A program made the translations under genes and the position numbers. A stretch of DNA of 64,000 bases from NCBI GenBank assembly GCA_963715635.1, contig OY970261.1, positions 1,086,438 through 1,150,437 of the forward strand, in the 5' to 3' direction. The notes under the pieces were generated by a model. It ran no database searches. It saw nothing but the letters and a program-made list of their open reading frames with translations, and had not been told where the DNA came from. This DNA comes from Candidatus Aminicenantes bacterium (GTDB lineage: Bacteria; Acidobacteriota; Aminicenantia; Aminicenantales; UBA4085). Shown here one piece after another: positions 11,881 to 54,900 of this stretch (the stretch's first letter is position 1; each line of letters opens with the position of its first letter).

Positions 11881-12022
11881 GGCTCCGTCATGTCATACAG
11901 AAGACGTTCTCGAGGCAAGAATATTCCATTTCTTGCCCGGGCACAACAATAAAAGCCTTGATTTTCGGCCTCGACAACGGTCAAAATGGAGATGATTATT
12001 ATTCCTGTTTGAGCATAGCAGC

Positions 12023-13342
12023 TTGGCCCGAAAACAAGAGACCGGCTCCATCCCGCAGGGGGACAAGAAAATCATCCGCGGCTGGGTGATGTATGACTGG
12101 GCCAATTCCGTCTATCAACTGACCATCGCCTCGACTATTTTTCCAATTTACTACAACCAGGTGACACGATCGGGGAGCAATTTTACGGTGGATTTCTTCG
12201 GCCTTCCGATCATCAACACCGTGCTCTATTCCTGGGCGATCGCCGCGGCCTATCTCGTCGTAGCGCTCTTTTCCCCGCTGTTTTCCTCGATCGCCGATTA
12301 CACGGGGCGGCGTAAAGCCTTCATGAAGATGTTCACGTGGATTGGCGCTCTCTCCTGCGGCGCCCTGTTCTTTTTTGACAAGAATACGATCGAACTCGGA
12401 ATCGTCGCTTTTTGGCTGGGGACAGTCGGCTACGGCGGGAGCATCGTCTTTTACAATTCTTTTCTTCCCGTCATCGCCAAGCCCGAGGACCAGGACCGGG
12501 TGAGCGCCCGCGGCTATTCCATGGGCTACTTGGGCAGCGTCATCCTTCTGGTCATGAACCTCATCGTCGTCCTGAAGCCGGACTGGTTCGGCATCAGCGA
12601 CAAGCTCCTGCCGGCCAAGCTGTCCTTTTTGTCCGTCTTCCTGTGGTGGATCGGCTTCTCTCAGATCACCTTCCGCCGCTTGCCGAAATACACGTTCGGC
12701 CACCGGGCCAAAGGCAAGAGCGCTCTTTTCGGCGGATACAAAGAGCTCCGGCTCGTTATCCGGCAAATCAGGAAGCTGCCCCGTTTGAAACTTTTCTTAT
12801 TCGGGTTTTTCTTTATCATGATGGGGCTGCTGACGGTCATGTTCATGGCCGCTACCTACGGTGAAAAGCAGCTCCGGCTGAGTGAGGGGATCCTAATTTC
12901 CACCATTCTGGTCATTCAGATCATCGGCATGCTGGGGGCCTGGCTTTTCGCCAGGATTTCCGGACGACTGGGCAATATCCGAGCCTTTATCCTCACAGTC
13001 ATCATTTGGGTTCTGGTCTGCATCGGGGCCTATTATATCCGCGATGCCGCAGGATTTATCGCGGTCGCGGCCTGCGTCGGGCTGGTCATGGGAGGCTCCC
13101 AATCGCTGGCCCGTTCCACCTATTCCAAGATGCTTCCGGAAACGGAAGACCACACGTCCTTTTTTAGCTTTTATGACGTCGTGGAAAAGCTGGCCACGGT
13201 TGGCGGCACGTTCAGTTTCGGGATCATCGAGGCGCTGACGGGGAGCATGAGGAATTCCGTCCTGGCCATCGCGGCGTTTTTTGCTGTCGGGCTGGTGTTC
13301 ATGCTTTTTCTTTTGAGACGGCGCGACGTCCCCACGATCTAG
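12023..13342 (+). CDS. MFS transporter, UMF1/Atg22-like family, 439 aa
   Basis: GWVMYDWANSVYQLT N-terminal motif typical of Atg22-like MFS. 12 predicted TM segments. Confidence 0.75.
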   Translation: MARKQETGSIPQGDKKIIRGWVMYDWANSVYQLTIASTIFPIYYNQVTRSGSNFTVDFFGLPIINTVLYSWAIAAAYLVVALFSPLFSSIADYTGRRKAFMKMFTWIGALSCGALFFFDKNTIELGIVAFWLGTVGYGGSIVFYNSFLPVIAKPEDQDRVSARGYSMGYLGSVILLVMNLIVVLKPDWFGISDKLLPAKLSFLSVFLWWIGFSQITFRRLPKYTFGHRAKGKSALFGGYKELRLVIRQIRKLPRLKLFLFGFFFIMMGLLTVMFMAATYGEKQLRLSEGILISTILVIQIIGMLGAWLFARISGRLGNIRAFILTVIIWVLVCIGAYYIRDAAGFIAVAACVGLVMGGSQSLARSTYSKMLPETEDHTSFFSFYDVVEKLATVGGTFSFGIIEALTGSMRNSVLAIAAFFAVGLVFMLFLLRRRDVPTI

Positions 13343-23089: not shown

Positions 23090-24310
23090 TTAAGCCTGCG
23101 CCGGCGTTTCGGCCGGGCCTTTCTTTTCCTTGAACAGCGCCACGAAGGCGACGGCACAGACAAGCGTCAGGACCGTCGGCACCCAGAAGACATTTCTCCA
23201 GTTCGTCACCTTTTCGACAGTGAAAAGACCCTGGATCCATCCCGAAAAATTGCTCCCGATGAAACTGCCGAGTCCCAGGATGATGACGGCAATCAAGCTT
23301 TGGGCCGAGGCGCGGATGTCCTTGGGCGCGATCATATCCACGTAGATATAGGCGGCCGTGAAGAAGAACACGTAGCAGAAGCCGTGGAGAGACAGCGAAG
23401 CGACGACCAGCCAGGCGGGCGTCCCGATGACGAAGATGATATAGCGGAGCGGCCAGGCCAGGACGCCAAGAACCATCGTTTTTTTGATGCCGTATTTGGG
23501 GAGGAAGTAGGGGAGGAGAAGGGCCATGACGAAGATTTCGGCAACCTGGGCGATGGTCATGACGCCTGAAAGCCAGGATTCGGTCACGCCGACTTTGGGC
23601 GAAGTGAGGAAAGGCGCCGTCAGGACATAATAGAATTGAAGCTCCGTGGCGACAATAAAAGCGATGATGGTGAAGACCAGGAAGTTCTTGTCCTTGAGCA
23701 TCTTGATGGCCTCCAGGAAAGCCCAGGGTTTGGCGCCTTCTTTTTTCGGCGGCGTATGCGGAAGCCCAAAGGCCAGGAACCCCATGATGACTGAGAAAAT
23801 GCCGGCCAGAAACAGCGTGTCTCCGTTGACGGCAATGGCCGAGACCGATTTGGCGGCCAGGCGCCATCCCACGAGCCCCCAACCCGCCGCAATCCAGCCG
23901 ATCGTTCCCCAGACCCGGATCTTGCCGAAATCCTTTTCCGAGTTTTGAAGATTAATGAAAGCGATGGAGTTCGTCAGGGCCAGCGTCGGCGCATAGATGA
24001 GGCAGTAAATGAACATCACCCAAATAATGGCCGAGTAGGATGCGACGGCCGAGCCCAGAACCAACAGGATGCCGCCGGCGATCTGCATGAAGGCGATCAC
24101 TTTTTGGGTGGGGAAGTAACGGTCGGCCAGCTGGCCGCCGATAAAAGGCGCGATGATCGTGGCGATCGGCAGCAAGCTGTAGATGAAACCGGCCTGGGGG
24201 CCGCTGAACCCCAGCGTATTGATCAAATAGGCCGAGAGCACCGGGAACCAGGAGCCCCAGATCGCGTACTCCAAGAACATCATGATGCCAAGGCGGAATT
24301 TTGCGTTCAT
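23090..24310 (-). CDS. MFS transporter, nucleoside:H+ symporter (NupG/XapB-like) family, 406 aa
   Basis: MNAKFRLGIMMFLEYAIWGSWFPVLSAYL resembles the NupG N-terminus. ATG 24310 preceded by GGAGG. 20 nt downstream of it sits the Gfo gene start. Confidence 0.65.
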   Translation of the reverse strand: MNAKFRLGIMMFLEYAIWGSWFPVLSAYLINTLGFSGPQAGFIYSLLPIATIIAPFIGGQLADRYFPTQKVIAFMQIAGGILLVLGSAVASYSAIIWVMFIYCLIYAPTLALTNSIAFINLQNSEKDFGKIRVWGTIGWIAAGWGLVGWRLAAKSVSAIAVNGDTLFLAGIFSVIMGFLAFGLPHTPPKKEGAKPWAFLEAIKMLKDKNFLVFTIIAFIVATELQFYYVLTAPFLTSPKVGVTESWLSGVMTIAQVAEIFVMALLLPYFLPKYGIKKTMVLGVLAWPLRYIIFVIGTPAWLVVASLSLHGFCYVFFFTAAYIYVDMIAPKDIRASAQSLIAVIILGLGSFIGSNFSGWIQGLFTVEKVTNWRNVFWVPTVLTLVCAVAFVALFKEKKGPAETPAQA

Positions 24311-24528
24311 ACCCTCCTTCCTTTTCATGAAGAATTCATTGGGGATGATAGGGCGAAGCCAAAAATATATAAATTTCGACGCTTTGTCAAATGGGCTCGG
24401 GGCAAGCGCTTCATTAAAGGAGAAGGGGGTCCTGTCGCCGACCAGCCCCATCATCCTCGCTGAAAAATTTGGGTATATATCCAGGACTGCTGAATTGACA
24501 GAATGTATCCCAAATTTTCGTCAGCTGC

Positions 24529-24569
24529 GGTGGCTGGGGCGCCCGGTCGGCGCCACCCCACTTTTTTTT
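24529..24569 (+). terminator. plus-strand intrinsic-terminator-like GC hairpin (GGTGGC..GGCGCC..GGCGCC..ACC) followed by T8, inside a divergent intergenic region
   Basis: Read directly: GC-rich self-complementary segment 24529-24559, then tttttttt at 24562-24569. No plus-strand gene ends upstream (the upstream gene is on the minus strand). Confidence 0.45.
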
Positions 24570-24683
24570 AATCGCGCATTGCCCCTCGCCCGACAAAAAA
24601 AAGAAAAAATGAATATTACACGCTCTAGTTTGACTTCGGATGGGAAAAATATTATGGTAGAGTCACGGCAGGCAATCACGGCT

Positions 24684-27600
24684 ATGAAATGCCCTCAGTG
24701 CCAGTTTGAAAACCCCGGAGACACCCGTTTCTGCGGCAGCTGCGGGGCACCCCTTCGTCCTTCCCAGGAGAGCGTCTCGGCCCGCACAGAAACCATGCAA
24801 ACTCCAAGAAAAGAACTCGCGTCGGGCAGCCTGTTTGCTGGCCGCTACCAGGTCATTGAAGAGCTGGGAAAAGGCGGCATGGGCAAAGTCTACAAAGTAT
24901 TGGACAAAGATCTGGATGTGAAAGTCGCCCTCAAACTCCTGAAGCCCGAGATCGCCTCCGATGAAGAGACGATTGCCCGCTTCCGGAACGAGCTCAAAGT
25001 CGCCCGCACCGTCACCCACAAAAATGTCTGCCGGATGTACGATTTCGGGAGGGCCGAGGGCACGTACTTTATCACGATGGAGTATGTCCCCGGCGAGGAC
25101 CTCAAGAGCACGATAACTAGAGTCGGGCAGTTGAGTGTAGGGAAGACGATCGCCGTTATCAAGCAGGTCTGTGAGGGATTGGCCGAAGCCCACCGGCTGG
25201 GTGTTGTCCATCGGGACCTCAAGCCCCAGAACATCATGCTCGATCGAGAGGGAAACGCCCACATCATGGACTTCGGGATCGCCCGGACCTTTCGGACGAA
25301 AGGCCTCACGGGCGGCAACGTGATGATCGGCACGCCCGAATACATGTCCCCGGAACAGGTCGAAGGGAAGGACATCGACACGCGCTCGGATATCTATTCT
25401 CTCGGCATCATTCTTTTCGAAATGCTGACAGGAAGAATTCCTTTTGAGGGTGAATCTGTTTTAAGCGTTGCCCTCAAACAGGAAACCCAGCCGCCCCCTG
25501 ATCCGAGAGCAATTAACAGCCAGATTCCGGAAGACTTCAGCCGCCTGATTCTCAAGTGCCTGGAAAAAGAAAGAGCCAAGAGATTCCAGAGTGCTGAAGA
25601 AGTATTGGCTGAGCTGGCCAAGATTGAAAAAGGCGTCCCCACGACAGAGCGGGTGATTCCCCGACCCACGCGCCTCGCCTCGAGGGAAATCACGGTCAAA
25701 TTTACCCTGAAAAAGCTATTTGTTCCCGCCCTCATTGTCATAGCGGTTGTTGCGGCAGGGCTGTTCGCCCTCTTCTTGATCCCCAAAAAAGAGCCGGCTA
25801 GACATTCCATTGCCGTCATCAGCTTTAAAAATCAAACGGGCGACAAGGCCTTCGACTATCTCCAGGAAGCCATTCCCAACCTTCTGATCACGAGCCTCGA
25901 GCAGTCCAAATATCTGCGGGTGACGACATGGGAAAGGATGAAGGACATCCTCAGGCAGTTGGGCAAAGACGCCGGAGGCCTTATCGATGAGGATCTTGGG
26001 TTCGAGCTCTGCCGAAAGGAGGGCATCGAGGCGATCGTTATCGGAAGCTTCGTCAAGGCCGGAGAGATGTTCGCCACGGACACCAAAGTCCTGGAAGTGG
26101 AGACGAAAAAGCTCGTCAGAAGCGCCGGCGCCAGGGGCGAAGGCGTCGGAAGCATTCTTAAAAGCCAGATCGACGATCTGAGCCGAAATATCTCGCGGGG
26201 CATCGGATTATCGGAGCGCAAGATTGCCGCGGCAGCCCCGGCCAGGATCATCGATCTCACCACCAATTCGATGGAAGCCTATAACTATTTTTTGAGGGGC
26301 CGGGACGATTATGAAAAGTTTTTTTATCTTGACGCCCAAAAATTTTTGAAGAAGGCCGTCGAGCTTGACCCGACCTTTGCCGTGGCTTGCCTCTACCTGG
26401 CCAGGGCCAGCGCAAATTTGGTTGATTTCAAGGCCCGGGATGAAGCTCACGAGATCGCCAAAAAATATTCTCAGAAAGCCACTGAGAAAGAGAGGCTTTA
26501 CATCGAGGCCTCTTACGCCAACATTATTGAAAGGAACCCGGAGAAGAGATTCCGCATCCTCTCCGAATTGGTCAAAAAATTTCCTGAAGAAAAATATGCC
26601 CATTCCGAGCTGGGTGACTATTATGAAGACCAGGGGCAATATCGGGAAGCCATCGAAGAGCTCGACAGAGCTATTGCGCTTGACCCGAATTTCGGCTTTG
26701 CCATCAATCAAGCCGCCTATGACTATGCGCGGACGGGCAATATTGAAAAGGCCGTCGAATACTTCGAGCGTTATGCGTCCGTCAATCCTGGACTCCCCAA
26801 TCCCATAGACTCCATTGCCGAGTTGAACCTGCGCATAGGAAAACTTGATGAGGCCATCGCGAAATACAAGGAAGCCTTGGCCATTAAGCCCGATTTTTAT
26901 CGCTCTTGCGAGGGGCTCGCTTATATTTTTGCCCTGAAGGAAGATTACGCGGAGACGATGAGCTGGGTTGAGCAATTTGTCGAGGGGGCGCCGACTCCAT
27001 CGGCGAAATGGGAAGGAATTTGGCTGAAAGCTTACTTTGACTATTTCCTCGGCCGTTGGGATCGATCTCTGGCAGAATACCTTGCCTTGAAAAAGCAGGC
27101 TGAAAAGGCGGAATTTTCGTATGGGGTCGCAACGATAGACTGGATCACAGGATATATTTATTCGGATCTCGGGCAATTCGACCTAGCCCGAAGATCCTTC
27201 AAAGGATGGATCGATTATAATTTCAAGCAGAATCCGTCCACCAGGACTTCTGATGCGGCGCGAGACGGTTTCCAGTGCGCATGGGTAGACCTTAGACAAG
27301 GGCGAATAGAGGCCGCGAAAGCTAAGCTTAAGGAAATTGAATCCCTCCTGCCTGCAGTGGATTCAGCCAATAAAAAGGATATGACATTTCTTTATGAGCT
27401 ACTCGGTACGGAGGTTTGGCTGGCGGAGGGTTCCATCGATAAAGCCATCGCCCTTGCCGAAAAAATCGTTCCTTTGGACCCGCCGCTGATGCAAACGGCA
27501 AGCCTGGCCTTCACCAACCAGCCCTTCCTCAAAGACGTTTTGGCGCGTGCTTACTGGAAAAAAGGCGAGTTGGACAAAGCCATCTCGGAATACAAACGGC

Positions 27601-27797
27601 TAATGACCATTGATCCTAAAAACCAGCTCCGTTTCCTCATCCATCCGCTGTATCATTACAGGCTGGGCCGGATCTATGAAGAAAAAGGCGAGAAGGCCCA
27701 AGCCCGGGAGCAGTATCAAAAATTCCTTGAGCTTTGGAAAGACACCGACCCCGGCCATCCCGAGATCGCGGACGCAAAGAAGCGCCTGGCGGGATAA
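24684..27797 (+). CDS. Ser/Thr protein kinase (Hanks-type) with N-terminal zinc-ribbon, one TM helix and C-terminal TPR-repeat sensor domain, ~1038 aa
   Basis: CPQCQFENPGDTRFCGSCG zinc ribbon, GKGGMGKVYK glycine loop, HRDLKPQNIML catalytic loop, DFGIAR, TM (LFVPALIVIAVVAAGLFALFLI), then TPR-like repeats. Start ambiguous (24609/24654/24684) because the frame is open back to 24282. Confidence 0.8.
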   Translation: MKCPQCQFENPGDTRFCGSCGAPLRPSQESVSARTETMQTPRKELASGSLFAGRYQVIEELGKGGMGKVYKVLDKDLDVKVALKLLKPEIASDEETIARFRNELKVARTVTHKNVCRMYDFGRAEGTYFITMEYVPGEDLKSTITRVGQLSVGKTIAVIKQVCEGLAEAHRLGVVHRDLKPQNIMLDREGNAHIMDFGIARTFRTKGLTGGNVMIGTPEYMSPEQVEGKDIDTRSDIYSLGIILFEMLTGRIPFEGESVLSVALKQETQPPPDPRAINSQIPEDFSRLILKCLEKERAKRFQSAEEVLAELAKIEKGVPTTERVIPRPTRLASREITVKFTLKKLFVPALIVIAVVAAGLFALFLIPKKEPARHSIAVISFKNQTGDKAFDYLQEAIPNLLITSLEQSKYLRVTTWERMKDILRQLGKDAGGLIDEDLGFELCRKEGIEAIVIGSFVKAGEMFATDTKVLEVETKKLVRSAGARGEGVGSILKSQIDDLSRNISRGIGLSERKIAAAAPARIIDLTTNSMEAYNYFLRGRDDYEKFFYLDAQKFLKKAVELDPTFAVACLYLARASANLVDFKARDEAHEIAKKYSQKATEKERLYIEASYANIIERNPEKRFRILSELVKKFPEEKYAHSELGDYYEDQGQYREAIEELDRAIALDPNFGFAINQAAYDYARTGNIEKAVEYFERYASVNPGLPNPIDSIAELNLRIGKLDEAIAKYKEALAIKPDFYRSCEGLAYIFALKEDYAETMSWVEQFVEGAPTPSAKWEGIWLKAYFDYFLGRWDRSLAEYLALKKQAEKAEFSYGVATIDWITGYIYSDLGQFDLARRSFKGWIDYNFKQNPSTRTSDAARDGFQCAWVDLRQGRIEAAKAKLKEIESLLPAVDSANKKDMTFLYELLGTEVWLAEGSIDKAIALAEKIVPLDPPLMQTASLAFTNQPFLKDVLARAYWKKGELDKAISEYKRLMTIDPKNQLRFLIHPLYHYRLGRIYEEKGEKAQAREQYQKFLELWKDTDPGHPEIADAKKRLAG

Positions 27798-27800
27798 AAT

Positions 27801-27866
27801 CGGGGTCAAACCTACTCATTACGCACAATTGGCCAGGGGAATATGCGTAACGAGTAGGTTTGACCC
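27801..27866. repeat. REP-like palindromic element, copy 3 (opposite orientation to copies 1 and 2)
   Basis: Begins 4 nt after the kinase stop (27795-27797). Arms identical to copy 1. The loop ACAATTGGCCAGGGGAATAT gives the same GGGGA(A/G) loop motif on the mRNA strand as copies 1 and 2. Confidence 0.8.
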
Positions 27867-27934
27867 CACTAATCTCGCCAAAGGTCAGCGGTTATGGTAT
27901 TTTAAAGAGCGATTATTCGCCGCGAGGATATCCC

Positions 27935-29797
27935 ATGCATATTAAGAACAGTCTGAACGTAAAATCGGCCGTCGGCTATTTTTTACTCAGCGTTTTTGTG
28001 TTCTTTATCCTCTCGATTGCCGCGGACGGGGCGGAAACAAAAAATTTTTATTATCCCGAAGTCCGAATCGAGGTCCAGATTGCCGCGGATGGAACATTCA
28101 CCGTCGATGAATACCGGACTTATGAATTCCAGGGCCGCTTTTCCTGGGCGACGCTCTGGATCGCGCAACGCGTCGAGCGGCAGGGCTACGCCTATGATAT
28201 TTCCATAGAAGATTTTTCTGTCACCGACGAACACAACTTGCCGCTCCGGATAGAGCAAAGCATAAAACGCGAACGCTTCGAAGCCAAGTGGTATTATTCG
28301 GCCCGCAACGAGCGCCGCACCTTCCACATCCATTATCGGGTCCGCGGCGGGATCATCAGCTATCCGGAAGTCTCCGAGCTTTACTGGCAGGTGATCGGAG
28401 AAGGGTGGGACAAGCCTACTCATAACGCGGTGATCACCGTCCGCCTTCCAGGATCCGTGGCGAATAAGAGCGATATTCTTGTCTACGGACATGGGCCTCT
28501 TTCGGGCTATGCAGAGATCGTGGATAGCCAGACAGCCCGTTTTTCGGCCACTTATATCCGGTCCGGCCAATTCCTGGAAATCCGAATGGTTTGGCCGGCC
28601 GAGCTCGTTACCGGCGTCCCCTCGAATCGCCACACAGTGGACTCGATCCGCCGCGAAGAAGCGCAGTTCGTCCAGGATACGATCGCCAAGGCCAAGCGCG
28701 ACCAGGAACGAGAAGCGCGCAACGCGAAGAACCTGCAGCGCGGGTTCTATGCCTGGCTGGCCTTGTTCATCCTGGTGCCTCTCATCTGGCTGCTCTTTTA
28801 TTTGCATTTCTGGAAAAAGGTCGGCAAGGATTATCGTTTTATTGATATTCCTTCCTATGCCCATGAGCCGGCCTCCAAGCTCCAGCCGGCCCTTGTCGAA
28901 GTTCTTTTAAAAGAAGGGGCGGGGATCACGCCGAAGTCGTTCACGGCCACGATTTTCGATTTGGCCAGGCGCGGCTATATCGAGATCGAAGACCGGCTTG
29001 TGGAAAAGCGGGGCCTCTTCGGGAGCAAAGACGACTACGAAACGACGCTGACTTTGCGCAAAGAATTTCAGAGCGAAACGACCCTGCTCGGCTACGAGCG
29101 GGATCTTTTGGAATGGCTGTTCAGTAAGCCGTCCGACGATGCGCCGCAGGCCGGCGCGCGGCAGACGCTCGACAATATCAAAAAATACCTCAAACGCAAT
29201 CCCCAGACGTTTCAAAAATGGTATCTGGAATGGGCCAAGGACATCAAACTCGAGGGGAAAAAGCTCAATTTCATCGAGCCGGCGAGCTTGCGCATGCGCA
29301 ATATCTTTCTCGTTGTCACTTGGCCTCTGGCCGTTTTAACCCTCAATCCCGCCCTGGTCGCTCTCGCGATTCTCCTCATTCCGTTCATGAAGCGGCGGGC
29401 TCAACATTGGGCGCACGAGAATGAGCAATGGAAAGCCCTGCGGCGGTTCCTGGACGACTTCTCTGATTTTAAAGAACTCCCGCCCGAAGCGTATAAATTG
29501 TGGGAGCGATATTTGGTCTTTGGGATTATTTTTGGAAACGCCAAAAAAATCATCAAGACGCTTCCCTTGATTCTCAAGGACGAGCGGGCGGCGGCCCCGG
29601 TCTGGTACTCAGGCTACATCCAATCAAGCTTTATCAGCTCGGGAAGGCTCACCAGCATGATCAGCAGCATCGACCACATCTCGAGCTCCATCCAGCAGGC
29701 CAGCACTTCGGCGGCCCATTATTCCTCCGGCGGCGGAGGAGGATTCAGCGGAGGAGGCGGCGGGGGAGGCGGGGGCGGCGGCGGAAGCGCCGGCTAA
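27935..29797 (+). CDS. DUF2207 family membrane protein with C-terminal Gly-rich tail, 620 aa
   Basis: Signal/TM N-terminus, large extracytoplasmic domain, central TM helices (FYAWLALFILVPLIWLLFYL; VTWPLAVLTLNPALVALAILLIPF) and terminal SSGGGGGFSGGGGGGGGGGGGSAG, which is typical of DUF2207. Confidence 0.7.
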   Translation: MHIKNSLNVKSAVGYFLLSVFVFFILSIAADGAETKNFYYPEVRIEVQIAADGTFTVDEYRTYEFQGRFSWATLWIAQRVERQGYAYDISIEDFSVTDEHNLPLRIEQSIKRERFEAKWYYSARNERRTFHIHYRVRGGIISYPEVSELYWQVIGEGWDKPTHNAVITVRLPGSVANKSDILVYGHGPLSGYAEIVDSQTARFSATYIRSGQFLEIRMVWPAELVTGVPSNRHTVDSIRREEAQFVQDTIAKAKRDQEREARNAKNLQRGFYAWLALFILVPLIWLLFYLHFWKKVGKDYRFIDIPSYAHEPASKLQPALVEVLLKEGAGITPKSFTATIFDLARRGYIEIEDRLVEKRGLFGSKDDYETTLTLRKEFQSETTLLGYERDLLEWLFSKPSDDAPQAGARQTLDNIKKYLKRNPQTFQKWYLEWAKDIKLEGKKLNFIEPASLRMRNIFLVVTWPLAVLTLNPALVALAILLIPFMKRRAQHWAHENEQWKALRRFLDDFSDFKELPPEAYKLWERYLVFGIIFGNAKKIIKTLPLILKDERAAAPVWYSGYIQSSFISSGRLTSMISSIDHISSSIQQASTSAAHYSSGGGGGFSGGGGGGGGGGGGSAG

Positions 29798-30006: not shown

Positions 30007-30465
30007 ATGGAGATTAAGATTACGAGCGCGGCTTTTCGGGAAGGGGAGATGATTCCCCGGCAATATGCGTGCGACGGGCCGGACGTATCGCCGCCGCTAG
30101 CTTGGAGTTCGATTCCCGCGGCGGCCAAAAGCTTAGCCCTGATTTGCAATGACCCAGACGCGCCGCGGGGGACGTGGGTCCACTGGGTGATCTACGACAT
30201 TCCGTCCCATGTCGCACAGCTGGCCGAGTCGATTCCGCCTCAACGTGAACTCCAGGACGGAACCAGGCAGGGCCGGAATGACTTCGGTAAGATCGGATAC
30301 GGAGGGCCTTGCCCGCCCGGTGGTACGCACAGGTATTTCTTCAAAATCTATGCGTTGGACCAAATGCTCGGTTTGGATTCCGGGGCGACAAAAGCTCAAC
30401 TGCTCAAAGCTATGGAAGGCCGTATCTTGGCCCAAGGGCAGCTCATGGGGAAATACAGGCGCTAA
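30007..30465 (+). CDS. YbhB/YbcL family Raf-kinase-inhibitor-like (PEBP) protein, 152 aa
   Basis: GGPCPPGGTHRYFFKIYALD is the PEBP signature. Confidence 0.85.
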   Translation: MEIKITSAAFREGEMIPRQYACDGPDVSPPLAWSSIPAAAKSLALICNDPDAPRGTWVHWVIYDIPSHVAQLAESIPPQRELQDGTRQGRNDFGKIGYGGPCPPGGTHRYFFKIYALDQMLGLDSGATKAQLLKAMEGRILAQGQLMGKYRR

Positions 30466-30535
30466 GGCTAGTCCTGCACCTAAACCGATCACCCTTCCAT
30501 TACGTATGTATTATAAAGTTAATAAGGAGAACGCG

Positions 30536-30802
30536 ATGAAAGAAGAAAAAAAGACGGGAAAGACAAGAACCGAAGAATTCAAGGTCAGTGGAGGTGAGAT
30601 CCTCAACAAGTTTAAGGAGCTGATCCACGAAGGAAATATCCGCCGCATTATCCTCAAGGACGAGGATGGGAAAACATTCCTGGAGATTCCACTCACGGTC
30701 GGTATCATCGGGGCTGCCTTGGCTCCGGTGCTGGCAGCGATCGGCGCCATCGCCGCGCTCGTTTCCAAATTGACGATCGTCGTCGAAAAAGTCGATAACT
30801 GA
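30536..30802 (+). CDS. DUF4342 domain protein, 88 aa
   Basis: AAGGAGA RBS. EEFKVSGGEILNKFKELIHEGNIRRIILKDEDGKTFLEIPLTVGIIGAALAPVLAAIGAIAAL matches the DUF4342 pattern. The track ORF 30209..30802 is a spurious extension. Confidence 0.7.
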   Translation: MKEEKKTGKTRTEEFKVSGGEILNKFKELIHEGNIRRIILKDEDGKTFLEIPLTVGIIGAALAPVLAAIGAIAALVSKLTIVVEKVDN

Positions 30803-30851: not shown

Positions 30852-32114
30852 TTGACAAAAAAAACTCCCAACAAACAGGGATCTTGGCTGTCGAAGATCA
30901 TCCTGGGCTTTATCGTCGCGGCTACGGGCGTCGGCGCGGGCGACCTGATAACAGCCAGCCTGGCGGGGTCGAATATCGGCGTCGTTTTAGTCTGGACCGC
31001 CCTGGGGGGCGCTTTCATCAAGTTCGTTCTTGCCGAGGGCATCGCGCGCTGGCAAATGGCTACCGGGACGACGGTCCTTGAAGGATGGGTGGAGCGGCTG
31101 GGGCGCGGAGTTCAATGGGTATTCATTTTTTATTTTATTCTGTGGTCTTACTGTGTCGGCGGCGCCCTGATCAACGCCTGCGGCGTGGCCGGCGTCGGCC
31201 TGTTTCCTATCGGTGATCCGCAGACATCGAAAATTTTCTGGGGCATCCTCCATTCGCTCATCGGCCTGGTCTTGGTCTGGTTTGGGGGTTTCAGGATCTT
31301 CCAGTATGCCATGTCGCTGCTGACGGCGATCATGTTCGTCACCGTTCTTTTGACCGTATTTTTGATCTCGCCGGATTGGGCGGCCATTGGCAGGACGCTC
31401 ATTCGTCCGGCCCTGCCTGCGGGTGGGACGGCCTGGCTGCTGGGAGTACTGGGCGGGATCGGCGGAACCGTGACGCTCCTTTCCTATAGTTACTGGGTCC
31501 GCGAAAAGAAAAGGATCGGCAGGCAGGGCGTCAAGGATTGCCGGCTTGACCTCGGCCTCGGCTACGCATTGACCGCCTTTTTTGGCGCTTCCATGGTCAT
31601 TATCGGATCCAGGGTAACGATCGAAGGGCAGGGTGCGACCGTGGCTCTTGTTCTGGCCGACCAACTCGCCCGCGTCCTGGGACCGGCAGGAAAATGGATT
31701 TTTCTTTGGGGATTTTGGGGTGCGGTGTTCTCCAGTCTTCTTGGAGTCTGGCAGGGCGTCCCCTACATATTCGCCGATTTTCTTTACCTGCGGCGGGGTA
31801 TGATCCTTGACAAGACCCCGGAAAACAACATCACGACAACAATAGAATACCGAGGCTACCTGCTGGCCTTGACGTTCGTGCCCATCCATCTTCTCTGGTT
31901 CAAAGTGCAGCAAGTCCAGCTTGTCTATTCCGTGATGGGCGCGCTGTTCATGCCCCTGCTGGCGCTGACCTTGCTTCTCCTGAACACCAGGACGGCCTGG
32001 GTTGGCAAAGAATTCAAGAACAGCTGGGTGACGAACGTCCTCCTCGTTCTGACTCTTGCCTTTTTCACCTATATCGGCATCCAGGAGATCATGGGCACCT
32101 TCACCGGCCCCTAG
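30852..32114 (+). CDS. NRAMP-like divalent metal cation transporter (distant), 420 aa; apparent TTG start
   Basis: About 11 TM segments. N-terminal GVGAGDLITASLAGSNIGVVLVWTALGGAFIKFVLAEGIARW resembles the Nramp TM1-2 region. The first in-frame codon at 30852 is TTG; no ATG lies upstream of the conserved TM1. Confidence 0.5.
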   Translation: MTKKTPNKQGSWLSKIILGFIVAATGVGAGDLITASLAGSNIGVVLVWTALGGAFIKFVLAEGIARWQMATGTTVLEGWVERLGRGVQWVFIFYFILWSYCVGGALINACGVAGVGLFPIGDPQTSKIFWGILHSLIGLVLVWFGGFRIFQYAMSLLTAIMFVTVLLTVFLISPDWAAIGRTLIRPALPAGGTAWLLGVLGGIGGTVTLLSYSYWVREKKRIGRQGVKDCRLDLGLGYALTAFFGASMVIIGSRVTIEGQGATVALVLADQLARVLGPAGKWIFLWGFWGAVFSSLLGVWQGVPYIFADFLYLRRGMILDKTPENNITTTIEYRGYLLALTFVPIHLLWFKVQQVQLVYSVMGALFMPLLALTLLLLNTRTAWVGKEFKNSWVTNVLLVLTLAFFTYIGIQEIMGTFTGP

Positions 32115-32160: not shown

Positions 32161-33276
32161 ATGGCCAATCCATCTGTCAACGCAAGAGCCCTCTTGAGCG
32201 CTTCCTTAAAAACAAGCGCCGGGACTATCGCTCCGGTTTCAACGGCTGCCAGGCAGGCTTTCCGACAGGACTTTGCCCGCCTCCTCGACCTCGTTCAAAA
32301 AAGGTTTGTCGTTGATACCCGATACGGCCGCGACGAGGTTCTGGCCGGCCGGCTGGAATTTCTCAAGGATATGCACAAATACCTGGGCGAAATGTTCGGC
32401 GCTGTCTATGAATTCGGCCTTTATGAAAATCTGGTGGATGAATTTTCCTGGTTTGTCTCGGCGGCGTCTTCGCGGGGATTGAAGAAAGACTATTTTGAAA
32501 AAATGCTGGATGCCTGGCAATCCGCCCTTCACGGGATTCTCGAACCTGTCAAGGTCCGTGAGCTTGCCGCGCTACCGCAGTTTTTGTCCCGGAATCTGGA
32601 CGCTTTTCTTCGAATGCCCCAGCCTTCGGACCAGCTTGAGGCCGGTGCCAAAAGGCATCTCGCCCGGCTGCTCCTTGAGAAAAACAGGCGCGAGGCGGCC
32701 GAGGAGGTCCTTTCCCTGGCCAAGGAATATGCTTCTCCCGAGAGCCTGTTCCAGACTATTTTGGCGCCCGTTTTGCATCACATCGGCCGGCTCTGGCAAT
32801 TGAATCAAGTGAGCGTGGCCGATGAACATGCCGCTTTTGAAATCTGCCGCTACATCATTTTCCGCTTTTGCGACAGCCTCCCCAGGGAGTCGAAGAAATC
32901 CACCAGGGCCTTTGTCGGCTGCGTCACAGGGGAGGAGCACGCGCTGGCCGCGGAAATGACGGCCGAGGTCCTCGGCCTGAGAGGCTGGGCCGTATTTTTC
33001 TCCGGCCGGAGCGCGCCTCTGGACGAGATTCTGCGGTCCGCCCGCGAGTTCCGGCCGGATGTCATTTTTCTTTCCGTGAGTTTATTGTCCAATCTGCCGT
33101 CTGCAAGAGACCTGCTCCTGGCGCTCAAGAGCGCCGTCCCCGGCAGCCGGATCGTCCTGGGCGGCTCGGCGGCCCTGGCTGCCAAACAGGTTATGGAAAG
33201 ATATGCGGACGCGGTGGCCGAAAGTATTCAGGCCGGATACCGAAAGGCCTGGGACATGTTGAGGAATCATGCGTAG
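32161..33276 (+). CDS. cobalamin (B12)-binding domain protein: N-terminal unknown domain + B12-binding-2 helical bundle + B12-binding Rossmann domain, no DNA-binding domain, 371 aa
   Basis: IGRLWQLNQVSVADEHAAFEI (W..E..H, B12-binding-2 like). TGEEHALAAEMT (DxHxxG-like), FLSVSLLSN (SxL), VLGGSA (GG). Confidence 0.6.
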   Translation: MANPSVNARALLSASLKTSAGTIAPVSTAARQAFRQDFARLLDLVQKRFVVDTRYGRDEVLAGRLEFLKDMHKYLGEMFGAVYEFGLYENLVDEFSWFVSAASSRGLKKDYFEKMLDAWQSALHGILEPVKVRELAALPQFLSRNLDAFLRMPQPSDQLEAGAKRHLARLLLEKNRREAAEEVLSLAKEYASPESLFQTILAPVLHHIGRLWQLNQVSVADEHAAFEICRYIIFRFCDSLPRESKKSTRAFVGCVTGEEHALAAEMTAEVLGLRGWAVFFSGRSAPLDEILRSAREFRPDVIFLSVSLLSNLPSARDLLLALKSAVPGSRIVLGGSAALAAKQVMERYADAVAESIQAGYRKAWDMLRNHA

Positions 33277-34390
33277 AAAGACGGCCTGGAAAATGCTCCT
33301 TCATGACCGGTTGACAAGCGCCGGCTCGATTCTCGGCGTCATTGCTATCGTCTTTCTCGTCGGCCAGCAATATTCTGTCCTCTTTGGACTGTTTGGGTTT
33401 ATGTCGGCGTTGGTCGACCACAGCGGCGCCGATATTTGGATCTGCAGCAAGAACACGGACAACATCAACGCTTCTGGCACTTTGCCCATCCGATACATCG
33501 ATCGGATCGCCGGACTTCCCGAAGTGGAATGGGTGGAACCCATTATTTCGAGCGGAGGTGCGATCAAGCTCAAGAATGGCAAGACCCAGCCCGTCCAGGT
33601 CGTCGGTGTGCCGCGGCCCACTCTGACCGGAGGGCCCTGGCGTTTCGCCAAAGGCTCGATCGAGGTGCTGCTCGATTATGAAGGGGTAACCCTTGATAAA
33701 CTCGACCTTTCGACACTCGGCAATCCCGGGCTCGGGGATATCATCGAGGTGAGCGACCGACGAGTCCGGCTGGCCGGCATTACCCAAAACGTCCGCGGCT
33801 TCCAGGGGACGCTGATTTTCACTAACCTGCGGAAGGCCCGGGAGATCACCAAGCTGCCGCCCGATAGGACAAGCTACATTCTCATCAAGGCCAAAGAGGG
33901 ACAAAGTGTCGCCGGGCTCGTCCGTGAGCTGAAACAGCTTCTGCCGAAGGCGGAAGCGATTCCCCGCGCCGAGCTGGCCCGAAATACGCGGATTTATTAC
34001 GTCGTCAATACGGGCATCGGCAGCAGTATCGGATTTTCGGTCCTCGTCGGAGCCCTGGTCGGGATCGTAATCATCACTCTGACCATGTACACTGCGGTGC
34101 TCAACCGGCAGAAGGATTTTGCCGTGCTGCGCGCCATCGGCGGCCGGCGCAGGGACATCCTGGTCATCGTCTTCTATCAAACCCTGTTCATCGCCCTGGC
34201 CGGGGTGTTCCTTGGTTTCCTGCTCCTGGCCTCTTTTCTTTCCGGTGTCCGTGAAACGAACCTGCCGACTGGCATCCTGGTCTGGGTTCCCCCCGTTCAC
34301 GCCTTTTTGACGCTGGGGTTTAGTTTCCTGGGTGCCATCTTTGCAATGCGCCGGGCGGTGAAAATCGACCCGGCATCAGTGTTCAGATAA
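33269..34390 (+). CDS. ABC transporter permease, FtsX/MacB-like (4 TM with large periplasmic loop), 373 aa
   Basis: Overlaps the B12 gene stop by 8 nt. Topology is one N-terminal TM, a periplasmic domain of about 230 aa, then three C-terminal TM helices. Confidence 0.75.
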   Translation: MRRKTAWKMLLHDRLTSAGSILGVIAIVFLVGQQYSVLFGLFGFMSALVDHSGADIWICSKNTDNINASGTLPIRYIDRIAGLPEVEWVEPIISSGGAIKLKNGKTQPVQVVGVPRPTLTGGPWRFAKGSIEVLLDYEGVTLDKLDLSTLGNPGLGDIIEVSDRRVRLAGITQNVRGFQGTLIFTNLRKAREITKLPPDRTSYILIKAKEGQSVAGLVRELKQLLPKAEAIPRAELARNTRIYYVVNTGIGSSIGFSVLVGALVGIVIITLTMYTAVLNRQKDFAVLRAIGGRRRDILVIVFYQTLFIALAGVFLGFLLLASFLSGVRETNLPTGILVWVPPVHAFLTLGFSFLGAIFAMRRAVKIDPASVFR

Positions 34391-34395
34391 GAAAC

Positions 34396-35121
34396 ATGTC
34401 CACACCCGTCGTCCAGCTCGAAGAAATCGCCCGTGATTTTTATGACGGGAAGCAGCTCCGCCGCGTCCTTCAGCCCATCACCCTGGGCCTCTTCGCGCGG
34501 GAGTTCGCCGTCATCGCCGGGCCTTCGGGAAGCGGCAAAACGACCCTGCTGACGATCATCGGCCTGATCCTGAAACCGTCTTCGGGAAGAATTTTTATCG
34601 GCGATAAGGATGTCAGCCGCGAACCGGAAAATGTGCAGGCGACATTGCGCATGAAAAAATTCGGATTCGTCTTCCAGCAGGCCGACCTCATCCCCGGCCT
34701 GAACGTGCTGGAAAACATTTTGATCGCGGCGGCCGTCCAGGGCCAGCGAATCCCGTCGGCCGTCAAGAAACGGGCCAAGGATATCCTCCATCAATTCGGT
34801 CTCGAGACCTATGCCGAGGCCAAGCCCCAGCAGCTGTCCATGGGCCAGAAGCAGCGGGTGGCCATGGCCAGGGCGCTGGTCAACGACCCCCTGCTCTTGC
34901 TGTGCGATGAGCCGACCTCGGCCCTCGATGTGGAAAGCAGCAATATCGTCCTCGACAGCTTGAAAAAATTGTCCGCGGATGAACGCCGGGGCGTCGTCAT
35001 GGTCACGCATGATCCGCGCGTGTTTCCCTATGCCGACCGGCTCATCAAGCTGGAAAACGGCTCCATCATCTATGATTCCCGCCGGGATAAAGGAAGGGGG
35101 AGTGATGAAACGATTTCTTAA
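34396..35121 (+). CDS. ABC transporter ATP-binding protein (MacB/LolD-like), 241 aa
   Basis: Walker A GPSGSGKTT, signature LSMGQKQRVAMARAL, Walker B LLLCDEPTSALD. Confidence 0.9.
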   Translation: MSTPVVQLEEIARDFYDGKQLRRVLQPITLGLFAREFAVIAGPSGSGKTTLLTIIGLILKPSSGRIFIGDKDVSREPENVQATLRMKKFGFVFQQADLIPGLNVLENILIAAAVQGQRIPSAVKKRAKDILHQFGLETYAEAKPQQLSMGQKQRVAMARALVNDPLLLLCDEPTSALDVESSNIVLDSLKKLSADERRGVVMVTHDPRVFPYADRLIKLENGSIIYDSRRDKGRGSDETIS

Positions 35122-35977
35122 GTGGGCGCTCTTTTTGATGATCATCGCGGCGGGCGGATGGTATATCTATACCTCCCTGGCCAAGTCCGCCAAGCCGCCG
35201 ACCGCGGCGGCGCCGCCGGCGCTGCCCAAGGTTCCGCAAAGGGTTTACGGGATCGTCGAGCCGGCCGGCCGCGAGGTCTATGTGACATCGTCCGTATCCC
35301 GCCCCATCCGGGGGATCTATGTCAAGGAAGGCGACAGGTTGAAGAAAGGACAGCTGGTCCTGTCCCTGGAGAATGACCTGGAGCTGGCCCAACTCGAAGC
35401 GGCCTTGGCCAAGGTGGACCTGCGCCGCAAAGAGTATGAGAACAGCCAGTATGACCTTCAGAAAAAGAAGCAGCTGTTTGAAAATGAATCGGCGACCGAA
35501 TATGACTTCAACCAGCTCCGGCTGAAGGTCGAGCTAAATCTCTTGAACTTCGAGGCCGTCCGCAAAGACGTGGACCTGATCAAGGCCCAGCTCGCCCAGT
35601 TGGAGCTGAGGTCTCCTATCGATGGAAAAGTTTATAAAATGGATGCCCGGCTGGGGGAGACCCTGACGCCCGGCGCGGCGCCCAAGATCGTCCTGGGCTC
35701 GCCCAACCTTTGGGTCCGGCTCTATGTCGAGTCCTTCTGGATGGACCGCTTCCAGCTCGGCGGCCTATGCCAGGTCTATGACTCCGAGACCAATGAATTC
35801 CTCGGCACAGGAACGGTCATCAGCAAATCGCCGACTCTATCCACGCGCACGTTCCGGACAGAGGATGTCGGAGAGAGGTTCGATGCAGAGTTTGAGCAAA
35901 TCGTGTTGACGCTCGACTCGAAAAAAGAAAATATCCCACTCGGATTGAATGTCGTCGCATCGCTGGAGAAAAAATAA
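35105..35977 (+). CDS. HlyD-family periplasmic adaptor (membrane fusion protein), 290 aa
   Basis: ATG 35105 overlaps the ATPase stop. N-terminal TM, coiled-coil segment, beta-barrel/lipoyl-like C-terminus. Confidence 0.7.
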   Translation: MKRFLKWALFLMIIAAGGWYIYTSLAKSAKPPTAAAPPALPKVPQRVYGIVEPAGREVYVTSSVSRPIRGIYVKEGDRLKKGQLVLSLENDLELAQLEAALAKVDLRRKEYENSQYDLQKKKQLFENESATEYDFNQLRLKVELNLLNFEAVRKDVDLIKAQLAQLELRSPIDGKVYKMDARLGETLTPGAAPKIVLGSPNLWVRLYVESFWMDRFQLGGLCQVYDSETNEFLGTGTVISKSPTLSTRTFRTEDVGERFDAEFEQIVLTLDSKKENIPLGLNVVASLEKK

Positions 35978-36054
35978 TATAAATAGGGGGGCCATCGTCC
36001 TTCAAAAGATGCCCCCCATTTGACGGACCTTATGGGTTGAGGGAGGAGGGAAAC

Positions 36055-51947: not shown

Positions 51948-54900
51948 ATGACCGACAAAAAGATCAAGGTGCTGATGATCGAGGATAGCCCCGGGGATAT
52001 CCGCCTCATTCGCGAAATGTTTAAGGAAGTGGGCATCAGCCTGTTTGAGCTTGAAACTGCCTCCTGCCTCAAGGAGGGGTTGGAGAAAATCAAAGAGACC
52101 TTGTATGACGTCATCCTCTTGGATCTCGGGCTGCCCGACAGCCGGGGACTTGAGACGTTCATCAAGGTCAATGTTCAGAAACAAGAGGTTCCGATTATCG
52201 TGCTGACAGGTCTCGCCGATGAAACGCTTGCTCTCGATGCCATAAAAAGAGGGGCACAGGATTATCTTGTCAAAGAGCAACTCAACACCGGCCGGCTGGC
52301 GACGTCGATCAGCTATGCCATTGAACGCAAAAAAACAGAACGCCGGCTTATCAAGTCTGAGCAATGGTTTCGAATGCTGATCGAAACCTCTCCAGAAGTG
52401 GTCACCGCAATGGATTTGGAGGGCAGGATTACATACGTTTCCCCCCGAGCTCTCGAGCTCCACGGTTTTAAGAGTCCCGAAGAGCTCATCGGGAAAAACA
52501 TTCTTGAGCTCCTTTCTCCGGAAGATCACGAACGGGCGAAGAAAAATCTTCAGATAACCTTGAAAGACGGTATTTTAAAAAATGAACAATATGCCCTGGT
52601 CAAGAAAGACGGAACCCGATTTGTCGGCGAACTCAGTTCCGCCCTGGTTTGTGATATCGGGGGAGAACTGAAAGGCTTTGTCGCCATTACAAGAGATATT
52701 ACCGAGCGCAGGCTGGCGGAGGAGGCCCTAAAAAAGCGGAATGCCCAGCTTGAGCTGATTTATCATATTCAAAGCGAAATTCCGGCGAATACCGATATTG
52801 AAACGGTGCTCGTCCGGGCGGCCGAAAGCATCGGCAAATCCTTCGGATATTACAAGATTTCCGTGAACCTTTATCATCCGGAGACGGAAGAAATCGAATA
52901 TCTGACCGGCTGGAACAAATCGGGCCTTCTTATCCCCAGGGGCCATAGACAAAAACTTGGGCAGGGGCTTATCGGCAAGGCGGGTCTCTTGAAACAGACG
53001 ATTATCGCTAATGATGTTTCCAAAGAGCTGGACTATATCCCCTATCACCTTACGGAGACAAAAGCGGAGTTGATCATTCCTCTAGTTGTCCAGGATCAGC
53101 TCATTGGGGTTCTCGACCTCCAATCGACTCAGATCAACGCCTTCTCTGAAGACGATGTCTCCGTCCTGCAGGCCATCGCCAGCTATATTGCCCACATTAT
53201 CGATAAGAAGCGGGAGGGAGACGCGCTGAGGGAAAGTGAGCAGAAATTCAAGAATCTTGCCGAACAGGCGCCTAACATGATTTTTATCAACGAGAAGGGC
53301 AGAGTCGTTTTTGCCAACAAGAAGTGCGAAGAGATTATGGGATATCAAAGAGAGGAGATTTACTCGCCTGATTTCGATTTTCTCGTTTTGATTGCGCCGG
53401 AAGATAAAGCCAAGATAAAGGCAAATTTCGCCAAACATTTGCGAGGAGAAGAGAATCCTCCATTGGAATACGCCATTCTCACCAAAGAGGGAAAAAGAAT
53501 CGACGCCATACTTGCCACAACACTTATCGACTATGGGGGAGGGAAAGCCATCCTCGGCACAATCACAGACATCACCGAGCGGAAGTGCGCCGAAAAGGCC
53601 CTGCAGGAGTCGGAAGAAAAATACCGCAATCTCTTTGAGGAAGCGCGGGATGCTATCGCCGTGGCGTCTGCTGAGACGGGCATAATAATCGACTGCAATC
53701 GGGCGGCCACTCTGCTTTGGGGCCGAGAGAAATCGGAACTTGTGGGCCAGCACCAGCGCATACTCCACCCCTCGGAGGAAATAAAAGGCGGAATCTCCCG
53801 GACCTTCCAACAACATCTCGGGGAAAAAGAAGGGCAGGTGCTCGAAGCGCAGATTGTGACCAAGAACGGGGAAATTAGAGGCGTGGAAATCATGGCCAGT
53901 GTCTTTGAGCTAGGCGGCCGGCGACTCATTCAGGGTATATTCCACAACGTCACAGAACGGAGGCGGGCGGAGGAAGAGCTCAAAAAGTCGGAAGAGCGGT
54001 TCAGACTTGTGTTCGAATCTGCTCCCGACGCCTACTATTTGAACGACCTGAAAGGCCATTTTATTGACGGCAATAAGGCCGCGGAGAAACTGACGGGCTA
54101 TAAGAGGGAGGAGCTCGTCGGAATGAGCTTCTTGAAGCTGAACCTGCTTTCTGCGGAGTTTATTCCGAAAGCCGCTTATCTTTTAGTCAAAAACCTAAGA
54201 GGCAAGCCGACCGGGCCCGATGAATTTATTTTGAAAAGAAAAGACGGCAGCAAGGTCGCGGTTGAAATCAGCACCCACCCCGTAAAGGTCGGGGGAAAAG
54301 CGGTCGTTTTGGGAATCGCCAGAGACATCACGGAGCGAAAGAAGGCGGAGCAGGCCCTGAAAGAAAACGAGGAAAAATATCGAACCTTAACCGAAAATGT
54401 CAACATCGGAGTTTACAGAAACACGGTGGGACCCAAAGGCAGGTTCATCGAGGCGAATTCCGCCGAGGTTAAGATGTTTGGTTATAAGAAAAAAAAGGAA
54501 TTCCTGGCTTTGAATGTTTCTGATTTATACGAAAACGAAGCGGACAGAGAAAAATTTAGCGAAAAAATAGTCAGACAGGGATTTGTCAGGAATGAGGAAA
54601 CACACCTCAAGAAAAAGGACGGGAGTTCGATCATTTGTTCGGTATCGGCGGTCGCCGTCAAGGATGGGCAAGGAAACGTCCAATATTTCGACGGAACCAT
54701 TGAAGACATCACCGAGCGCAAGCGGGCGGAGGAGGCGTTGCACGAGAGCGAAGAGAAATATCGGACTCTGGTGGAAAACGCCGCGGAAGCCATCCTCATC
54801 GCCCAAGACGGCATGCTGAAGTTCGTCAATCGTATGGCGAGTGAGATAACCGGTTATTCGGAGCAAGAACTGCGTTCCTCGCCTTTTCTCGAGTTCATTC

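Follow-up and report, generated by a model that had tools for sequence, protein, structure and literature searches.

A photocobilin-type sensor gene in strict linkage with a MacB-type ABC exporter operon in Candidatus Aminicenantes and other bacteria

Introduction

Known photoreceptors that use B12 deliver their output to DNA (CarH/LitR), to an antirepressor target (AerR) or to a diguanylate cyclase (photocobilins). Proteins that combine a photoglobin with a B12-binding module carry the globin before or after that module and include standalone forms (PMC8717448; PMC10979010); the role of standalone photocobilins in the cell is an acknowledged open question (PMC10979010). We analyzed a 64,000-nucleotide stretch of DNA from a Candidatus Aminicenantes bacterium (contig OY970261.1; the whole stretch is hereafter called the window), in which the gene of a B12-binding protein of the photocobilin type (hereafter the sensor) overlaps the first gene of an operon encoding a MacB-type ATP-binding cassette (ABC) exporter. 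An earlier note on this stretch, written from the sequence alone, had drawn attention to the arrangement. Here we describe the locus and its relatives, assign the domains of the sensor and of the pump, and weigh the possible relations between the two.

Results

Organization of the sensor-pump locus

The sensor gene and the three pump genes are all on the forward strand. The features of the locus, in window coordinates, are as follows.

32161..33276, + strand: sensor gene, 371 amino acids (aa), encoding a cytoplasmic photoglobin plus B12-binding (photocobilin-type) protein without a DNA-binding domain (from the list of open reading frames (ORFs), Pfam, motifs, PDB profile search and AF2 model)
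32161..32640, + strand: predicted globin-fold domain, sensor aa 1-160 (core helices about aa 28-150)
32368-32370, + strand: codon of D70 in the globin domain
32449-32451, + strand: codon of the invariant W97 in the globin domain
32656..32850, + strand: B12-binding_2 four-helix bundle (PF02607), sensor aa 166-230, with the adenosyl-pocket motif
32794-32796 and 32824-32829, + strand: codons of W212 and of E222-H223 (G209-xx-W212; W212-x9-E222-H223)
32905..33213, + strand: B12-binding Rossmann domain (PF02310), sensor aa 249-351, with G282-xxx-P286 and G334-G335
32938-32940, + strand: codon of H260, the putative lower axial ligand
33269..33276, + strand: 8-nt overlap of sensor stop and permease start (ATGCGTAG), read from the sequence
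33269..34390, + strand: permease gene, 373 aa, MacB-type (type VII ABC) by PF12704 and PF02687
34396..35121, + strand: ABC ATPase gene, 241 aa, by ABC_tran (PF00005)
35105..35977, + strand: adaptor gene, 290 aa, membrane-anchored periplasmic protein of the HlyD/membrane-fusion-protein type by HlyD_3, with the start chosen at MKRFLK
35986..36017, + strand: G+C-rich hairpin just 3' of the adaptor stop, which may terminate the operon, its T tail being weak

The stop of the sensor gene overlaps the start of the permease gene at 33269, as the earlier note had it, and 8 nt are common to both genes (CATGCGTAG; C ATG CGT AG). A 5-nt spacer separates the permease gene from that of the ATPase. The adaptor ORF as listed runs from 34979 to 35977; a likelier start is the ATG at 35105 (MKRFLKWALFLMIIAAGG), which has GGGGGAG 5' of it, gives a product beginning MKRFLK and a hydrophobic anchor, and is equivalent to the start at which the orthologue in locus L001 was called. 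With this start the adaptor gene begins 17 nt before the end of the ATPase gene. The order of ATPase and HlyD adaptor after the permease and an overlap of these two genes are as the earlier note had them.

An Nramp-family gene (30852-32114) lies 46 nt upstream of the sensor gene, a gap in which a scan for the sigma-70 consensus found no convincing promoter, and an S9 peptidase is encoded downstream of the operon. The hairpin at 35986-36017 has a fold energy of -19.4 kcal/mol (z -2.3 against shuffles) and was not called by a consensus terminator scan.

Linkage of sensor and pump genes

The sensor protein is identical to database member P0047. The database of 90% clusters holds 37 members of the sensor family at E < 1e-20, mostly full-length, and an exhaustive search with the globin domain returned 302 clusters (50% identity) at E <= 1e-3, 97 of which are at E <= 1e-10; with few exceptions their length is 340-375 aa and the domain is N-terminal. 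Seventeen distinct loci with a full-length sensor gene were examined, namely 13 from the tblastn table (L001, L003 with its duplicate L004, and L006-L015) and those of P0024, P0071, P0104 and P0129, the place of P0024 being known from called genes only. A gene for an FtsX/MacB_PCD permease lies directly 3' of the sensor gene in all 17, at sensor identities down to about 30%. These neighboring permeases are 365-373 aa long (mostly exactly 373) and 50-90% identical to the window permease, and they are followed by the ATPase and then the adaptor wherever the contig extends; the same gene order is found in L016 and L017, in which the sensor gene is truncated. P0037, L005 and L018-L026, which have the B12 module only or a distant globin and no pump, were treated as outgroups.

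The linkage was also examined from the side of the pump. Sixteen permease orthologues form a gap-free alignment with a mean column identity of 73%, and a scan of the metagenome collection with this alignment gave 80 loci, 64 of them with at least 600 nt upstream of the permease gene; the sensor gene is directly upstream in 62 of the 64. The synteny of the B12-domain gene with FtsX, ATPase and HlyD genes, which the earlier note had offered as a check, is therefore found in relatives starting from either partner (17/17 and 62/64), and the linkage of sensor and pump is strict in both directions. Some overlap of sensor and permease genes occurs in 79 of the 88 loci that have both, and it measures exactly 8 nt in 75; this retention in related loci indicates that the translational coupling of sensor to permease, first read from the window, is real. 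The permease clade comprises at least 322 clusters at E <= 1e-10, none of which bears a functional name. Named hosts of the module are metagenome-assembled genomes of Ignavibacteria, Zixibacteria, WOR-3 and Thermodesulfobacteriota, and the genes flanking the module vary between lineages.

A remote sister clade of the sensor, represented by P0143, in which the globin motif is of the DNHRNH type, carries a GGDEF gene in the overlapping position where the sensor loci have the permease gene. In locus L027 the P0143 gene (445-1566) and a 321-aa GGDEF gene (1553-2518) overlap by 14 nt at the stop of the sensor-clade gene, and the pair corresponds to AbDPcob, a characterised fusion of photocobilin and diguanylate cyclase, divided into two genes. 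Isolated photocobilin domains activate a separated diguanylate cyclase via protein-protein interaction (PMC10979010). The P0143/GGDEF overlap and the AbDPcob precedent lend support to a simple rule by which the gene overlapping the sensor stop would encode the effector of the sensor. A matching photocobilin-cyclase fusion is P0178 (691 aa), the C-terminus of which looks diguanylate-cyclase-like by eye.

The B12-binding module of the sensor

The B12-binding-2 bundle and the canonical B12-binding domain described in the earlier note both score above their Pfam cut-offs: B12-binding_2 (PF02607) matches sensor aa 166-230 with E 3.5e-10 and 40.4 bits (cut-off 23), and B12-binding (PF02310) matches aa 249-351 with E 2.6e-15 and 56.8 bits (cut-off 32.1). 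Also in keeping with that note, no helix-turn-helix or MerR domain was matched by Pfam in the sensor; because a DNA-binding domain was looked for and is absent, the sensor is not a CarH.

Light-responsive B12 domains are defined by the CarH residues W131, E141, H142 and H177 and by the motifs GxxW, EH, GxxH and GxxxP (PMC11796333; PMC10979010). The translated sensor contains G209-xx-W212, W212-x9-E222-H223, E258-E259-H260, G282-xxx-P286, S307-L-L and G334-G335, and the photoreceptor signatures GxxW, Wx9EH, GxxH/ExH and GxxxP are all present (G209/W212, E222-H223, G257/H260 and G282/P286), amounting to four of four SignatureFinder photoreceptor motifs plus Wx9EH. All of these residues except G257 and E258/E259 are invariant in an alignment of 26 homologues. 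A search of PDB sequences with a profile of 26 family members ranked the photocobilins first (8J2W/8J2X, E 7e-38; 8J2Y), followed by 8JBS, the B12-binding domain of a MerR-family protein, by CarH/LitR (about 4e-16) and then by methionine synthase and corrinoid proteins; AerR is among the matches with E 3e-6. The best NCBIfam model for the sensor is CarH, which covers aa 164-342 only and reaches 63 bits against a cut-off of 400, and the MtbC, MtgC and pyl_corrinoid models give 23-26 bits against cut-offs of 215-370. Since the defining residues are present and, apart from G257, invariant in the family, the B12 module is assigned on its sequence to the CarH-type photoreceptor class and not to the methyl-transfer type; the ranking of photocobilins and then CarH/LitR as closest PDB relatives, with the corrinoid models far below their cut-offs, bears out the light-sensing module that had been named at the outset. 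The full-length AF2 model of the sensor is confident, with a predicted local distance difference test score (pLDDT) of 91 and a predicted template-modeling score of 0.87.

In JGI/IMG the label "methanogenic corrinoid protein MtbC1" is attached to P0003, P0004, P0016, P0018-P0021, P0045, P0046 and other homologues. By the scores and the genomic context this label is a misannotation, recurrent in the family, which the analysis of the sensor corrects.

The N-terminal globin-like domain

Alone, the N-terminal domain of the sensor matched nothing in Pfam and nothing among PDB sequences, and when the first 160 aa of 22 family members were scanned with Pfam, only noise resulted. The earlier note had recorded here a domain of about 180 aa of unknown function; the domain is present, but its description as unknown does not stand, as structure prediction gives a globin. 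In the AF2 model of aa 1-160 alone (pLDDT 88.6) these N-terminal residues, about 160 in number, are confidently predicted to form a phycobiliprotein/photoglobin-like globin fold. Its nearest structural neighbors are phycobiliproteins together with the globin by which the photocobilin SasPcob binds biliverdin, with phycoerythrin, ApcE and globin-coupled sensors further down; the top Foldseek matches are bilin-binding globins, namely smURFP with biliverdin and allophycocyanins, at a TM-score of about 0.6 and weak E-values of 0.09-0.7. When the whole sensor protein is used in Foldseek, the B12 module dominates the matches, since SasPcob has its domains in a permuted order.

A wider globin profile, built from the exhaustive HMMER search, was compared with three photocobilin-like proteins of actinobacteria (L019-L021) over their C-terminal domains. 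By hmmsearch it gave 19-20 bits against an Actinoplanes photocobilin-like protein, a marginal match with E 0.002 at a PDB-sized Z, and by hhalign a P of 6.5e-5 and a probability of 64%; the two alignments share one register. The invariant W97 aligns with Trp296 of SasPcob, a contact of the biliverdin D-ring (residue numbers are those of the SasPcob paper, which equal SEQRES numbers plus 6), and D70 falls at, or one residue off, the biliverdin-binding Asp270, the D of the photoglobin CXQD motif, in a register that is uncertain by one residue; the window sensor reads FLKD at this position. Homology of the sensor globin to photoglobins specifically is likely from these alignments, at marginal significance, and bilin binding by it is possible. 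With a globin-type N-terminal domain joined to the B12 module, the sensor therefore belongs to the described photoglobin-B12 (photocobilin) class, with the globin first, and is thus a known kind of protein; its globin domain means that it may sense light with two chromophores.

The pump

The permease consists of a periplasmic MacB core domain and a four-transmembrane FtsX domain, which score 47.9 bits (MacB_PCD, PF12704) and 48.4 bits (FtsX, PF02687), both above the Pfam cut-off. The ATPase scores 108.5 bits for ABC_tran (PF00005) and carries the Walker A motif GPSGSGKTT, the signature LSMGQ, the Walker B motif LLLCDEPT and the H-loop VTHD; its best PDB matches are MJ0796, 5XU1 and MacB, and its nearest NCBIfam models are DevA, LolD and MacB, each below cut-off. 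The adaptor reaches 25 bits for HlyD_3 (cut-off 22.2) and 26.9 bits for HlyD_D23, just below the cut-off of 30, and has an N-terminal hydrophobic anchor. On this domain content the pump is classed as a MacB-type (type VII) ABC tripartite exporter. The window operon has no gene for a TolC-like outer-membrane channel. The nearest Pfam sub-families of the adaptor are CzcB/CusB-like.

More specific identities were considered and rejected. Against DevBCA the NCBIfam scores are 192 bits for DevA (cut-off 295.8), 60 for DevC (290.35) and 39.4 for DevB (129), and the scores for LolC/E and MacB are likewise under the cut-offs that would make the proteins LolCDE or MacB equivalogs. The best PDB match of the permease is the haem exporter HrtB (7W78, E 8e-5), and membership of an HrtB-like haem exporter family was not accepted, the match being weak and confined to the FtsX transmembrane part.

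Genes around the module

In 19 of the 45 loci with room for it, the adaptor gene is followed 3' by a gene with the RudS architecture, a fusion of DUF523 (2-thiouracil desulfurase/TudS) and DUF1722, or in some loci by DUF523 alone, and a UvdE UV-damage endonuclease gene comes next in 8 of 21. RudS removes photosensitive 4-thiouridine from tRNA, shortens the growth delay induced by UVA and is typical of light-responsive operons (PMC11417400). This operon context, with RudS and UvdE in many lineages, favors a role in light over one in cobalamin trafficking. In the window clade neither gene is found, and the neighbors are Nramp, PEBP, DUF4342, peptidases and glycoside hydrolases.

WOR-3-type operons run on past the adaptor with the RudS-like DUF523+DUF1722 fusion and then UvdE, as in L010 (9884-10846 and 11021-11905); the same extension is seen in L015 (9791-10741 and 10744-11637) and in L054, L059, L060, L065, L087 and L094. 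In these WOR-3-type lineages the sensor gene is often directly preceded by a gene of the metallo-beta-lactamase fold.

Genes for metal-ion transporters lie just upstream of the module in several loci: Nramp in the window (30852-32114), L001 and L035, a P-type cation ATPase in L003 (6018-7880), and CorA in L082 (2385-3449), where it precedes the permease gene and the sensor gene is missing. The occurrence of three unrelated metal transporters may be chance or may hint at a link to metals. In L003, which belongs to the P0019 lineage, a 464-aa ORF (11824-13218) without a Pfam match overlaps the adaptor stop; it could encode an extra pump component, for example the outer-membrane part. In the P0104 lineage catalase and then DUF454 genes are found a few kb upstream of the module, with a TPR protein gene between (L030 1064-2494; L031 264-1694), which may reflect an oxidative-stress context. 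The P0025 lineage (L007) has a standalone DUF1722 gene (1-378) and a small PNPOx-like (split-barrel) gene (404-790) before the sensor gene, the Pfam match being weak; split-barrel proteins include some haem-degrading, biliverdin-forming enzymes.

Other features of the window

Elsewhere in the window, 51948-56600 encodes a hybrid histidine kinase of 1550 aa that has numerous PAS domains, one GAF and two receiver domains, and the end of this gene overlaps by 4 nt a receiver-HD-GYP gene of the cyclic-di-GMP phosphodiesterase type (56597-57694). A Ser/Thr protein kinase of 1171 aa that includes a long stretch of TPRs is encoded at 24282-27797, and the next gene (27860-29797) is that of a DUF2207 membrane protein. 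The PEBP-family ORF (30007-30465) and the DUF4342 ORF (30209-30802) overlap as listed; the DUF4342 match spans only aa 118-194 of the latter and the L001 orthologue has 88 aa, from which it follows that the true DUF4342 start is probably well downstream of 30209.

Discussion

Proposed direct control of the pump by the sensor

The architecture of the sensor and the overlap of its gene with that of the permease suggest that the pump is switched directly by light. We propose, at a probability of roughly one half, that the sensor is translated together with the pump, serves it as a dedicated partner in the cytoplasm and passes a light-induced change directly on to the dimeric ATPase/permease. The sensor would consist of a globin, perhaps holding a non-covalent bilin, packed on a CarH-type module that binds adenosylcobalamin (AdoCbl), and translational coupling within a single operon would keep its amount in fixed proportion to the permease, ATPase and adaptor. 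Bound to AdoCbl and in darkness, the sensor would occupy a particular oligomeric or conformational state; light in the green or UV-blue range, possibly also red light by way of the bilin, would break the Co-C bond and change that state in the manner of CarH and the photocobilins. Direct contact would carry this change to the ATPase/permease dimer and alter export activity, and the pump would become part of a light/UV-stress response. Photosensitising tetrapyrroles, envelope lipids and pigments are candidate substrates. The analysis shows the domains and motifs of the sensor, its globin fold, the reciprocal gene linkage, the retained overlap and the UV-related operon genes of many lineages, and from these we infer chromophore binding, the photochemistry, the contact of sensor and pump, the direction of regulation and the substrate; the earlier note's mechanism, protein-level control of the pump or substrate handoff to it, is a proposal of the same kind. 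In its fullest form the proposal would make this the first natural photoreceptor-gated ABC transporter, in which a photocobilin with AdoCbl and bilin serves as a stoichiometric subunit of a type VII pump with a light-switched ATPase cycle, a step that we put forward tentatively.

Several points weigh against direct control by light. The Foldseek matches of the globin domain have weak E-values, and the support from sequence for a photoglobin in particular is marginal (E 0.002; 64% probability by hhalign); within the sensor family the Asp column contains D, N, T, H or G, and the Cys of CXQD is absent from the window sensor, as it is from SasPcob-type sequences, and bilin binding is therefore uncertain. 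Two permease loci (L082 and L084) have a CorA-like gene in the place of the sensor gene, and the window operon is without RudS, UvdE or any other light-related neighbor. No light-regulated ABC transporter appeared in the photoglobin, photocobilin and B12-photoreceptor-mining papers or in keyword searches of the literature, so that for the final step, the gating of the pump, no precedent was found.

Other explanations

The output of the sensor might instead be indirect: the photoreceptor would act in the manner of AerR through a transcription factor or relay encoded elsewhere, and the pump would merely be a co-expressed light-stress effector. B12 sensors that lack a DNA-binding domain and act on separate regulators are known, AerR being itself a PDB match of the sensor profile (E 3e-6); RudS and UvdE make the operon look like a light-stress effector regulon, and photoglobin genes are usually near signal-transduction genes (PMC8717448). 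However, no transcription factor or signalling gene recurs near the module across lineages, and an 8-nt overlap in 75 of 88 loci together with 97% reciprocity with one narrow pump clade exceeds what co-regulation needs and is typical of the subunits of one complex, which leaves indirect output an unlikely account. About equally improbable is a light-independent handling of tetrapyrroles, the substrate handoff already mentioned, with the sensor as a chaperone or ligand sensor for cobalamin, bilin or porphyrin and the pump as an exporter of the tetrapyrrole. It would fit with the fact that both sensor domains are tetrapyrrole-binding folds, with HrtB being the solved structure nearest to the permease, albeit by a weak match that covers the FtsX transmembrane part alone, and with the metal transporters, differing by lineage, upstream of the module. 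Yet the Wx9EH pocket, invariant in the family, specifically accommodates the 5'-deoxyadenosyl upper ligand found in photoreceptors and is not a feature of corrinoid carriers, an Rfam scan of the whole window matched neither a cobalamin riboswitch nor any other RNA, no gene of cobalamin or haem metabolism recurs near the module, and the extra operon genes that do recur are UV-related; MacB-type pumps are, moreover, thought to load from the membrane or periplasm and not from a cytoplasmic carrier.

The JGI name "MtbC1" would make the sensor a methyl-transfer corrinoid protein unrelated to the pump, and several homologues are indeed so named and the corrinoid-protein models do match weakly. With those models far under their cut-offs and CarH as the best one, with no methyltransferase genes adjoining the sensor loci, and with an extra globin domain and strict pump linkage to be explained, the NCBIfam scores and the neighborhoods effectively refute this interpretation, to which we give hardly any credence.

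Comparison with known systems

The main text of the key photoglobin, photocobilin and B12-photoreceptor-mining papers contains no ABC, FtsX, MacB, HlyD or efflux partner, and the sensor-pump pairing is absent from keyword literature searches and from papers using the word "photocobilin" within the openly searchable literature. The earlier note's remark that the arrangement is not commonly described agrees with this outcome, and what appears to be new is the obligate MacB-type pump partner of a known photoreceptor class. The pairing of the sensor with one narrow MacB-type clade of at least 322 permease clusters offers a widespread and testable answer to the question of what standalone photocobilins do. 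If the sensor does gate the pump, this would be a new class of photoreceptor output and a new form of ABC transporter regulation, it might provide an optogenetic handle on membrane transport, and it would give non-phototrophic, mostly uncultured bacteria an immediate post-translational export response to illumination.

Among described proteins the photocobilins (SasPcob, 8J2W/8J2X; AbDPcob, 8J2Y; PMC10979010, PMC8717448) share with the sensor the CarH-type B12 module (Wx9EH, ExH) and a phycobiliprotein-like globin. The invariant Trp of the sensor family aligns with the biliverdin D-ring position, and the window sensor has an Asp at or next to the biliverdin-binding position, in a column that varies across the family. 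The globin is last in SasPcob, whereas it is first in the window sensor, where it has diverged too far to be detected by sequence in Pfam or the PDB. Described photocobilin partners are GGDEF, STAS/SpoIIE, kinase and HTH proteins, in contrast to the MacB-type ABC pump found here. CarH/LitR (5C8A, 5C8D, 3WHP) have the same two-domain B12 module and signature residues, and by analogy the light-triggered oligomeric change of CarH/LitR would be expected of the sensor as well; unlike the sensor they have a MerR-type DNA-binding domain, in place of which the sensor has its globin, and the proposed output is a membrane transporter and not a promoter.

On the side of the pump, MacAB-type systems, among which DevBCA and LolCDE come nearest of the named families, have the same types of permease, ATPase (MacB/LolD/DevA type) and membrane-fusion adaptor. 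The window pump differs from them in its gene order of permease, ATPase and adaptor, in that all three of its proteins are far below the equivalog cut-offs, and in that its clade has an obligate cytoplasmic photoreceptor-like partner gene. MacB/FtsX-type transporters do form stable complexes with sensory proteins, as in BceAB-BceS. There the transporter informs a histidine kinase, whereas here it is proposed that a soluble photoreceptor informs the transporter, the sequences of the two systems being unrelated.

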